From Escherichia phage BananaBelafonte, in sequence record PP925845.1: a stretch of 51,510 nt of DNA, one strand, 5' to 3'. A program made the translations under genes and the position numbers. Of this stretch, positions 1,611-3,834 are shown in pieces. The notes below the pieces were generated by a model that worked only from the letters and a program-made list of their open reading frames with translations, was not told the DNA's origin and did not search any database. Position 1 is the stretch's first letter. Each line of letters starts with the position of its first letter.

Positions 1611-1898
1611 ATGCAGCAAGTCAGAATTTTATCATCGGATTATGGTTCGCTCATGCCAGCAGTCGGCAAAATTGTAAACGCAATACCATGCGGTAGCGGC
1701 TGGATGATTCCGGTTGGCGAGTCGCTCAAGCATGACCCGCATAGCGTTTGGGGTGACGAGGCGCGTTTACCAATCAGTGAGCAACCAGCGCTTTACTTCT
1801 CACGCTTTGACGTTGAGGTTGTCGAAACTAACCCGTTCGCATACTGGAATGCGATTAAATCAGGCACACACCACGTTAACAAGGAGATCGCACGATGA
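1611..1898 (+). CDS. hypothetical early protein (95 aa)
   Basis: ORF with GAGAGGGAAA RBS after a conserved intergenic module. Confidence 0.45.
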   Translation: MQQVRILSSDYGSLMPAVGKIVNAIPCGSGWMIPVGESLKHDPHSVWGDEARLPISEQPALYFSRFDVEVVETNPFAYWNAIKSGTHHVNKEIAR

Positions 1899-2437
1899 AA
1901 TTTGAACTATGGGGCAATACTTACCACTTAGGCAGTGCAACAAAAGGTGTTGTCATTGTCGATCTGGATGGAACTTTGAGCGACGGCACGCACCGCTTGC
2001 ACCTGCTACCAACAAAGGATTTGCACCTTACGGAAAGCTGGAGCGAATTTAACCGCGCAGCAAAGCATGACGCACCAATCAAAGACACAATCGCCGTGGT
2101 CAATGGCCTTTGGGTTTCCGGTTTCGCGGTTATTATCCTAACAGGCCGGAGCGATGAAGTAGAAGCGGAGTCGCACAAGTGGCTGCAAGAGCACGGCGTG
2201 AAATACGATTTTATGATCATGCGCCGCGCCTGGGACAACCGCAAAGACACGATCATCAAAGAGGAGGTGTTACGCGCTATCGGCTTGGAAAACATCGTAT
2301 GCGCCTTTGACGATTCGCCGTCTGTGATTCCACACTTCCGCAGCCTGGGGATCACAACTTACGCGGTGACGCACTACGACAAGCCGCACGCACATCTTGC
2401 AAGTCACGGCGTGGAAAAGGCAGGAGTTGCGAAATGA
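1895..2437 (+). CDS. HAD-superfamily phosphatase-like protein (possible nucleotidase or polynucleotide 3-phosphatase)
   Basis: N-terminal motif VDLDGTL (DxDxT signature of HAD hydrolases) in translation; start overlaps previous stop (ATGA). Confidence 0.5.
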   Translation: MKFELWGNTYHLGSATKGVVIVDLDGTLSDGTHRLHLLPTKDLHLTESWSEFNRAAKHDAPIKDTIAVVNGLWVSGFAVIILTGRSDEVEAESHKWLQEHGVKYDFMIMRRAWDNRKDTIIKEEVLRAIGLENIVCAFDDSPSVIPHFRSLGITTYAVTHYDKPHAHLASHGVEKAGVAK

Positions 2438-2643
2438 TTCTCAACGTAGCTTTTGCCAATCCGCGCGGCTGCAACGTCTACGGATTCCGCCAGGGCGCAC
2501 AGGTTAACGCCAGGTATGACGAGAAAGGCGTGATGTATGTCACCGCACCGAAAACAGGCGTGAAGATGCGCATTAAGGAGAATGGCGGGAGAATGTTTAT
2601 CCGGTCAATGTCAGGACAAACCCTGGCGACCTTCTGCAAATAG
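2434..2643 (+). CDS. hypothetical protein (69 aa)
   Basis: ORF overlapping upstream stop by 4 nt; ends in the TAG of a conserved module. Confidence 0.4.
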   Translation: MILNVAFANPRGCNVYGFRQGAQVNARYDEKGVMYVTAPKTGVKMRIKENGGRMFIRSMSGQTLATFCK

Positions 2644-2689
2644 CACGAATTGCTAAAACAGATTAACGGGCTTGCGGTATAGTAAGCCC
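2641..2689 (+). promoter_or_regulatory. conserved intergenic module copy
   Basis: TAGCACGAATTGCTAAAA at 2641-2658; hairpin GGGCTT..AAGCCC with TATAGT 22 bp after TTGCTA; leader CATCGAAACCAAACGAGGAAA. Confidence 0.6.
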
Positions 2690-2714
2690 ATCGAAACCAA
2701 ACGAGGAAATGAGC

Positions 2715-2960
2715 ATGAAAAACGTAACCGTAAAACTGATTAACCGTGGCGGCTATGACGGACTGAAACACGTCACATTCCCGCAGACCGTCCAGGGGCG
2801 TTTGCACGAGGAGTTAGGTTACATCGACGTGCCAATGAGCGAGCTTAACAAAATCGGTTATGACGCGGTGGCGGGTAAGGTTGCGGCAATTCCAGACTGT
2901 GCGGAAAGCAGCGACTGCTTAACGTTTTTCCAGGGTAGCGAAGCGGAGGTGATTCTGTGA
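2715..2960 (+). CDS. hypothetical protein (about 81 aa)
   Basis: ATG at 2715 has better spacing to the GAGGAAA RBS than the ATG at 2709. Confidence 0.45.
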   Translation: MKNVTVKLINRGGYDGLKHVTFPQTVQGRLHEELGYIDVPMSELNKIGYDAVAGKVAAIPDCAESSDCLTFFQGSEAEVIL

Positions 2961-3184
2961 AATTCCAAATCTTCAAAGCGATTGACAAGGTAGACGGCGA
3001 TTTATCCCTTTTCATGTTCGATGAAACGGACGGCTACACGGTTATTAACTACAGCAAGCGCGGCGTTGCCTGGCTATGCGACCAGGCGCGAAATCACGGT
3101 TGCGATTGGACTCAAGATCCGCAAGAGACACCACGCCGTAACGATATGATTGATCCGGTTCTGGTTTGCGAGGTCAACACATAG
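2957..3184 (+). CDS. hypothetical protein (75 aa)
   Basis: ORF overlapping upstream stop by 4 nt; stop embedded in conserved module. Confidence 0.4.
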   Translation: MKFQIFKAIDKVDGDLSLFMFDETDGYTVINYSKRGVAWLCDQARNHGCDWTQDPQETPRRNDMIDPVLVCEVNT

Positions 3185-3230
3185 CACGAATTGCTAAACA
3201 TTCCGCAAGGCCATTTGATAAAGTGGCCTT
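3182..3230 (+). promoter_or_regulatory. conserved intergenic module copy
   Basis: TAGCACGAATTGCTAAAC then hairpin AAGGCCA..TGGCCTT with TAAAGT at 22-bp spacing. Confidence 0.55.
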
Positions 3231-3258
3231 ATTGAATCACAGCAAAGGAGAAAGCAAC

Positions 3259-3834
3259 ATGGCAAAGATTATCGTACTGAATGCACCACCAGGCGCGGGT
3301 AAAGACACAATCGGCGGTCTGGTCAAAGATTACTCACCCGTACCACTGCGCAACCTGGCATTCAAACAGCCGATGTTTGATATCGCAAAAGCAATTTTGG
3401 GAGTGCATCGCTTCAAGATGTTTATGGCGGCATACAATGACCGCAGCCGGAAAGAGCAATCCCATTCGTTCCTGATGGGTATGACTTGCCGAGAGTTTAT
3501 GATCTGGATTAGCGAGGAGGTTATTAAACCGCGATTCGGCAACGGGTATTTCGGCAAGATGTTTGCGGAAATGGCGGAAGCGAACGAAATTCCGGTGATT
3601 TGCACTGATGGCGGATTCCCTGATGAAATCATAGAGCTTGTGCGCCGTGGTCATGAGGTGAAAGTTTGCCGCTTGCACCGTTCAGGCTACACATTCGAAG
3701 GTGATAGCCGCGATTATATCCATATCAGCAAAGGCACGCTGTGCGGCGGTTATGGTGAGCATGATTATATTTTGGTCGATAACGACCCGATGCACACCGT
3801 TAACGAAATCATTCGCGATCACCTGGCGAAATAG
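3259..3834 (+). CDS. P-loop kinase (dNMP-kinase-like or polynucleotide-kinase-like)
   Basis: Walker A-like motif LNAPPGAGKDT near N-terminus; ATG at 3259 preceded by AAAGGAG RBS (ORF-track start 3166 rejected). Confidence 0.55.
   Translation: MAKIIVLNAPPGAGKDTIGGLVKDYSPVPLRNLAFKQPMFDIAKAILGVHRFKMFMAAYNDRSRKEQSHSFLMGMTCREFMIWISEEVIKPRFGNGYFGKMFAEMAEANEIPVICTDGGFPDEIIELVRRGHEVKVCRLHRSGYTFEGDSRDYIHISKGTLCGGYGEHDYILVDNDPMHTVNEIIRDHLAK

Follow-up and report, generated by a model that had tools for sequence, protein, structure and literature searches.

The left arm of Escherichia phage BananaBelafonte (sequence record PP925845.1) carries a gene for a HAD-family protein and, downstream on the same strand, a gene for a P-loop kinase. 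The whole stretch of 51,510 nucleotides that was analysed is referred to below as the window. In the original prediction the two products were taken for either a nucleotidase and a deoxynucleoside monophosphate (dNMP) kinase or a split polynucleotide kinase-phosphatase (Pnkp) for the healing of RNA or DNA ends.

The window holds the complete genome of a T1-like siphovirus belonging to the Drexlerviridae; among deposited sequences it is closest to Klebsiella phage vB_KM5a1-KLB26 (about 87% nucleotide identity across the region). The genome also encodes a RecE-like exonuclease, Erf, SSB, a primase, two helicases, two DNA methylases, an SbcD-like exonuclease and tail and lysis genes; no tRNA genes were found in the window. 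The features at the locus are as follows.

1611-1898, + strand: open reading frame (ORF) of 95 residues with a weak PHROG match only, function unassigned; first gene of the HAD cassette.
1895-2437, + strand: predicted stand-alone Pnkp-type HAD phosphatase of 180 residues (Pfam, PHROG, PDB and fold matches).
2434-2643, + strand: ORF of 69 residues with no family match in Pfam or PHROG; last gene of the HAD cassette.
2638-2694, + strand: 57-nucleotide intergenic repeat unit, consisting of the box TAGCACGAATTGCTAAA with a stop codon followed by a GC hairpin with TATAGT in the loop.
2709-3184, + strand: two small overlapping ORFs of 83 residues (2709-2960) and 75 residues (2957-3184), matching phrog_13854 and phrog_25318, function unassigned.
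3179-3235, + strand: 57-nucleotide repeat unit directly 5' of the kinase gene; the loop, TGATAAAGT, is an extended -10-like element.
3259-3834, + strand: predicted dNMP kinase of the R1DNK type, 191 residues.
3829-3885, + strand: 57-nucleotide intergenic repeat unit at the end of the kinase cassette.

Both genes were confirmed as real and as separate, with three small ORFs and two copies of the 57-nucleotide repeat between them. That they belong to an early region, as the original prediction has it, is suggested by position. The HAD gene starts with ATG, contains VVIVDLDGTL (HAD motif I) and has homologues with E values to 1e-107. Its start is coupled to the stop of the preceding ORF by an ATGA overlap (translational coupling), and its own stop overlaps, and is so coupled to, the start of ORF 2434-2643. 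The kinase gene contains NAPPGAGKDT and has homologues with E values to 1e-115. A start at TTG 3166, given in the mechanical ORF list, was rejected. ATG 3259 was taken as the true start because it is preceded at 8 nucleotides by the ribosome-binding site AAAGGAG, because 50 of 50 kinase homologues start there and because the longer form would cross the intergenic repeat.

The HAD protein was matched to Pfam HAD_PNKP (PF25109) with 70 bits (cut-off 27.6) over profile positions 3-140 of 143, and to phrog_415 at 2.6e-64. The closest solved relatives by PDB sequence search were Pnkp1 and T4 Pnkp. An AF2 model (pLDDT 83.6) was compared with solved structures using Foldseek; ranks 1-21 were all Pnkp1 or T4 Pnkp phosphatase domains (4xru/5uj0/1ltq, E 1e-9 to 7e-6). 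The motifs are D23-L-D25-G-T27 (motif I), R34, T83-G-R85 (motif II), D118/K122 and D139-D140 (motif IV). Residues D165, D167, S211, R213, D254, K258, D277 and D278 of T4 PseT (Pnkp) correspond to D23, D25, T83, R85, D118, K122, D139 and D140, which are invariant in 34/34 members. PseT R176 lies opposite the invariant R34 in an L-INS-i alignment; MAFFT --add placed it opposite A55. Judged by sequence and model, the protein is a stand-alone, catalytically complete Pnkp-type phosphatase. It shares its Pfam family with the 3'-phosphatase domain of PseT (1LTQ, 5UJ0) and with Capnocytophaga Pnkp1 (4XRP), which are also its top fold matches. It differs from PseT in standing alone, with no Pnkp-type kinase domain fused to it or elsewhere in the genome and no RNA ligase partner; after motif I it also has a cap insertion of some 14-20 residues, the cap being residues 35-58. 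A Pnkp-type HAD that acts alone as a DNA 3'-phosphatase is found in yeast Tpp1.

The kinase belongs to a family of 3,688 representatives at 50% identity. Sequences of the deoxynucleotide kinases (DNKs) of phage Rao1 (R1DNK, gp58), KarlJaspers (Bas06) and Klebsiella phage vB_KpnS-VAC2 were taken from the supplement of Zeng et al. (bioRxiv 10.1101/2024.12.20.629578). The window kinase is 46.5% identical to R1DNK over 185 residues (E 4e-52), and 47 and 40% identical over the full length to the KarlJaspers and VAC2 enzymes, respectively. On the family profile these three enzymes reach 220-245 bits (R1DNK 219.8); they have the same length as the window kinase and share with it the motifs LNxPPGxGKDT, SFKxPMF, DRxxKE, RxFMIWISE..KP.FG, DGGFxxE and RLHRxGxTFxGDSR. 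Purified R1DNK phosphorylates dAMP, dGMP, dCMP and dTMP, and its K15A variant is inactive (Zeng et al., bioRxiv 10.1101/2024.12.20.629578). Since these close homologues are demonstrated dNMP kinases, the window kinase is assigned as a predicted member of the R1DNK-type phage dNMP kinases, a subgroup of phrog_139. Overall, the original prediction was partly supported.

The active site was compared with that of T4 gp1 dNMP kinase (PDB 1DEK/1DEL) by mapping the 1DEK ligand contacts listed in PMC10653934 onto 72 members of the family. In gp1 the dNMP phosphate is bound by K37, R68, R132 and R177 and the base by D175 and E181. The P-loop is G14-K15-D16-T17, of which G14-K15-D16 is invariant in 72/72 members; K15 is the catalytic lysine of R1DNK. 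R62 in the DRxxKE motif (Arg in 68/72 members) is the equivalent of R1DNK R61. Further conserved residues are K36, R78, E86, K90, D117, E123, D149 and R151. The gp1 residues R68, R132, D175, E181 and D204 correspond to R62, R78, D117, E123 and D149, each conserved in 68-72 of the 72 members, and the P-loop position of gp1 R11 is Gly in the family. The gp1 fold, a P-loop core with a helical dNMP-binding domain, was found in the window kinase, which is 50 residues shorter than gp1 and does not have its helical insertion of about 36 residues. The profile match of T5 Dnk to the family is limited to the N-terminal 60 columns. A search of NCBIfam with the kinase gave nothing above threshold. PDB sequence searches, with the single sequence and with the 72-member profile, were rejected as a means of telling gp1 from Pnkp, as they returned P-loop matches alone. 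One homologue, gp14 of Citrobacter phage HCF1 (P0080, 219 residues), has its REFMIWISE..DxGF segment duplicated internally and no N-terminal P-loop, probably as a result of gene decay or rearrangement.

Linkage of the two genes was examined in 80 viral loci collected by way of the kinase. In 38 of them a HAD gene is found at most 1.5 kb from the kinase, always on the same strand and upstream (38/38), often with a gap of 0-6 nucleotides. Co-occurrence was found in 36 of the 40 loci at or above about 45% identity to the window kinase and in two of the 40 more distant ones. Fusions also occur. In a search of family representatives two proteins (P0259, 403 residues, and P0268, 461 residues) were found to consist of an N-terminal Pnkp-type HAD and a C-terminal R1DNK-type kinase. 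The two are 47% identical and keep a common linker (..AAG..M.K.G.F.GPELHG..), so that the architecture is inherited and not an artefact. No fusion gene was found in the viral contigs. The phosphatase-then-kinase order of these fusions resembles that of mammalian PNKP. The kinase of mammalian PNKP is of the 5'-OH PNKP type, whereas the phage fusion kinase is of the gp1/NMP-kinase (nucleoside monophosphate kinase) type.

In Rao1, which is also T1-like, gp57 is a HAD 61% identical to that of the window and lies 49 nucleotides 5' of gp58. Positions 36693-40117 of Rao1 (L146) were compared with 43036-45167 of the window. In Rao1 the pair is situated between an SbcD-like DNA-repair exonuclease and the holin, by the lysis genes. 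The same junction exists in the window (exonuclease 43036-44157, endolysin 44673-45167) without the pair, which is in the left arm with three small ORFs between its members. We infer from these two positions that the pair moved as a unit; mobility of the module within otherwise collinear genomes has been remarked upon in the KanT1 paper (PMC13164509). That HAD and kinase might be mere neighbours with unrelated functions in a mobile accessory region must be weighed against this. Each gene is found alone in many phages, and in the window they occupy separate repeat-delimited cassettes with three ORFs between them. The constant order and strand at all 38 co-occurring loci, the joint relocation and the existence of an inherited fusion nevertheless make chance proximity improbable. 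HAD and kinase are a linked, conserved pair; since each often occurs without the other, the coupling is not obligatory.

The proposal of a split Pnkp that heals RNA or DNA ends fared badly. Beyond the P-loop no homology of the window kinase to the 5'-OH kinase domain of T4 Pnkp was detected, and tblastn of the PseT kinase domain on the genome gave only a P-loop match of 17 residues. Where T4 Pnkp has its catalytic D35 and R38, after strand 2, secondary-structure register would place the invariant Lys36 of the kinase family. The kinase is unlike a Pnkp kinase by sequence, profile and fold; its close homologues are demonstrated dNMP kinases, most of the gp1 dNMP ligands are kept and the window holds no second kinase domain. 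No sealing ligase turned up when 20 non-structural ORFs were scanned against PHROGs; with T4 RnlA or a phage ATP-ligase-like ORF as the tblastn query the genome gave no match, and no ligase is annotated in Rao1. A paper on Retron Eco2 was set aside as a lead, as T4 PNK appears in it merely as a reagent. A functional but non-homologous version could still be conceived, in which 3'-phosphate or 2',3'-cyclic phosphate ends are healed by the HAD and 5'-OH polynucleotide ends are phosphorylated by the gp1-like kinase, recruited to this task, with a host ligase resealing tRNA or DNA cut by a defence nuclease. It would fit a HAD that is a true Pnkp-type phosphatase, and the two-domain logic of Pnkp is echoed in the conserved synteny with a P-loop kinase and in the natural fusions. 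Environmental Pnkp-type HADs are fused to Pnkp-type kinases in both orders, and DNA ligase is frequent beside the kinase in podophages without the HAD. Set against the properties of the kinase and the missing ligase, these points leave such a system very improbable.

The environmental fusions come from a sample of 60 environmental HAD loci, in four of which the HAD is fused to a Pnkp-type kinase. Three of these (L133, L134 and L140) have the T4-like kinase-then-HAD order; the fourth (L139:7704-8771, +) has an N-terminal HAD and a C-terminal Pnkp-type kinase. HAD and kinase were found as separate ORFs about 0.7 kb apart at one metagenome locus (L085), the single locus with both domains.

Evidence on the substrate of the HAD comes from Rao1 and the defence system Kongming. 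Deletion of R1DNK lowers dATP in Rao1 infection; R1DNK triggers Kongming, as do the DNKs of KarlJaspers (Bas06) and VAC2, and R1DNK R61Q escapes it (Zeng et al., bioRxiv 10.1101/2024.12.20.629578). T5 Dmp, a deoxynucleoside 5'-monophosphatase, is a published anti-Kongming factor, and Rao1 is Kongming-sensitive, raises dAMP 2-3 fold during infection and is protected only by T5 Dmp in trans (Zeng et al., bioRxiv 10.1101/2024.12.20.629578). Rao1 does all this while carrying its HAD, which is evidently no substitute for Dmp. This speaks against the Drexlerviridae HAD being a 5'-nucleotidase that depletes dAMP efficiently, at least at natural expression. Furthermore, a 5'-nucleotidase fused to a dNMP kinase would form a futile, ATP-burning cycle. 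On these two grounds a role as a 3'-phosphomonoesterase is favoured.

The reading that we consider probable is that the pair is the Drexlerviridae version of a conserved HAD phosphatase-then-dNMP kinase module for nucleotide supply, the HAD acting most likely on a 3'-phosphate, and that it is not a split Pnkp. The kinase would convert dNMPs, for example from the breakdown of host DNA, and ATP to deoxynucleoside diphosphates (dNDPs) with broad specificity, and host nucleoside diphosphate kinase would turn these into deoxynucleoside triphosphates for phage replication. Kongming would sense the kinase activity as a side effect. The HAD would hydrolyse a phosphomonoester (most likely a 3'-phosphate) at DNA ends or in 3'-dNMP or pdNp, and the treated material could then enter the route from exonuclease to 5'-dNMP to dNDP.

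Several observations weigh against this reading. We know of no nuclease of T1-like phages that makes 3'-phosphate ends. In the kinase, gp1 R177 is replaced by Gly119 and gp1 K37 by an aromatic residue, the invariant K36 and R151 being near these altered ligand positions. Pfam DNMK (PF21448) gave no match to the window kinase at E ≤ 1; the profile is touched by only six of the 72 family members (best E 0.0027), whereas T4 gp1 and T5 Dnk pass its threshold. The coupling is loose: in 42 of the 80 loci no HAD is encoded within 10 kb of the kinase, an absence that is real because a broadened HAD profile (jackhmmer) recovered none at these loci, and 55 of the 60 environmental HAD loci are stand-alone, with no kinase in the sampled DNA of the locus. 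Deletion of dnk costs Rao1 no fitness under laboratory conditions (Zeng et al., bioRxiv 10.1101/2024.12.20.629578). Finally, in a three-way alignment T5 Dmp has all of the 'Pnkp' catalytic residues and shares with the window HAD the cap insertion after motif I that is absent from PseT. The catalytic residues therefore cannot define the substrate of the HAD, and the use of the essential PseT residues as a marker of 3'-phosphatase specificity was rejected.

These last points belong to an alternative in which the pair is equivalent to T5 Dmp and Dnk. The HAD would then be a 5'-deoxyribonucleotidase that lowers dNMP, especially dAMP, balancing the kinase and shielding the phage from Kongming-type immunity. 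Over its full length T5 Dmp (dmp, L145:124-858, - strand) is assigned to phrog_415 (3.6e-57), which is also the PHROG of the window HAD; T4 PseT is assigned to phrog_505, with phrog_415 as a secondary match only. Like the window HAD, Dmp stands alone, has motif I, HR, the cap segment, (T/S)xR, KD..K and DD, and co-occurs with a phage dNMP kinase; the pattern DLDGT..HR..KHD..DT is also common to these two. The upstream position of the HAD at every co-occurring locus would likewise suit this alternative. Dmp differs in having extra insertions and a C-terminal extension of 65 residues, and in T5 its gene belongs to the pre-early class and is distant from dnk.

Profiles of the Drexlerviridae-type HAD, T4 Pnkp and T5 Dmp were compared using hhalign. 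The HAD profile matched the PseT phosphatase domain with 99.8% probability (E 1.2e-28) and the T5 Dmp family with 94.4% (E 8.8e-8, 138 columns); the Dmp family matched the PseT domain with 82.7% (E 9.6e-6). In terms of E value the HAD is thus about 20 orders of magnitude closer to PseT than to Dmp. In BLAST searches from T5 Dmp the relatives were all from T5-like phages and the HAD was not reached, and Dmp gave no match to PF25109. Together with the Kongming sensitivity and raised dAMP of Rao1 and the futile cycle, this distance makes a Dmp-like function unlikely.

A bolder reading may be mentioned, which we regard as speculative and unlikely. HAD and kinase may be a coupled two-step enzyme, fused in some phages, that converts 3'-phosphorylated deoxynucleotides or 3'-phosphate DNA fragments to dNDPs (pdNp to pdN to ppdN), or the HAD may edit kinase products and in this way modulate immune systems that sense nucleotides, such as Kongming. 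If true, the coupled enzyme would salvage products of nucleases for which no phage pathway is known to have a use.

As a new member of a family already characterised, the kinase adds little, since both the activity of that family and its triggering of Kongming have been published. The HAD represents a subgroup, so far uncharacterised, within a known family. Interest lies in the correction of its annotation and in the HAD-then-dNMP-kinase module, which is conserved, occasionally fused and also present in Rao1, the model phage for Kongming, where gp57 had drawn no comment. The main question raised is what the substrate of the HAD is and why the HAD travels with a dNMP kinase and is sometimes fused to it. 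The answer could bear on how T1-like phages manage nucleotide pools that are watched by host immunity.

Annotation of both genes in public records is inconsistent. phrog_415 is labelled 'polynucleotide kinase', a label that is wrong for the HAD and for the whole of phrog_415, because its members, T5 Dmp included, have no kinase domain and because it holds the T5 5'-nucleotidase. In GenBank it has come to be attached to HAD genes of Drexlerviridae and to many dmp genes of T5-like phages; other records name these genes 'acid phosphatase' or 'HAD-superfamily hydrolase', and the kinase 'phosphomevalonate kinase' or 'replication factor C large subunit'.

Kinases without a HAD sit in DNA-metabolism modules with a T7 gp6-type exonuclease, DNA ligase, endonuclease VII and ribonucleotide reductase. 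Among 127 neighbouring proteins scanned in 28 such loci (for example L052, L057, L069 and L073), five metallophosphoesterases (phrog_221) and seven ATP-dependent DNA ligases were identified. A metallophosphoesterase could replace the HAD non-homologously at these loci; Clostridium thermocellum Pnkp is a precedent for such an enzyme in the place of the HAD.

The 57-nucleotide repeat divides the left arm into small cassettes. Each unit consists of the palindromic box, which holds the stop codon of the preceding gene, and the GC-rich hairpin, followed by the ribosome-binding site and the next gene. The box occurs 13 times, compared with 0.14 expected by chance. The copies are located as follows.

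57-nucleotide repeat, left arm: 1218-1274, 1535-1591, 2638-2694, 3179-3235, 3829-3885, 4825-4881 and 6143-6199.
Further positions of the repeat box: 10320, 31093, 38002 (-), 41279, 42434, 42762 and 48438 (-).

In five of the seven left-arm copies the hairpin loop is TGnTAnnnT (extended -10-like), and the copy at 3179-3235 probably serves as the promoter of the kinase cassette. To read the repeat box as a -35/-10 pair (TTGCTA ... TATAGT) was rejected, as the spacer would be 22 nucleotides. A scan of 1-8500 for sigma-70 promoters and intrinsic terminators gave no enrichment relative to shuffled sequence and missed the repeat units. An analogous hairpin is present 5' of gp58 in Rao1, in the region termed promoter by Zeng et al. 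(bioRxiv 10.1101/2024.12.20.629578). One Rao1 escaper has two mutations in or just past this hairpin, together with a coding change.

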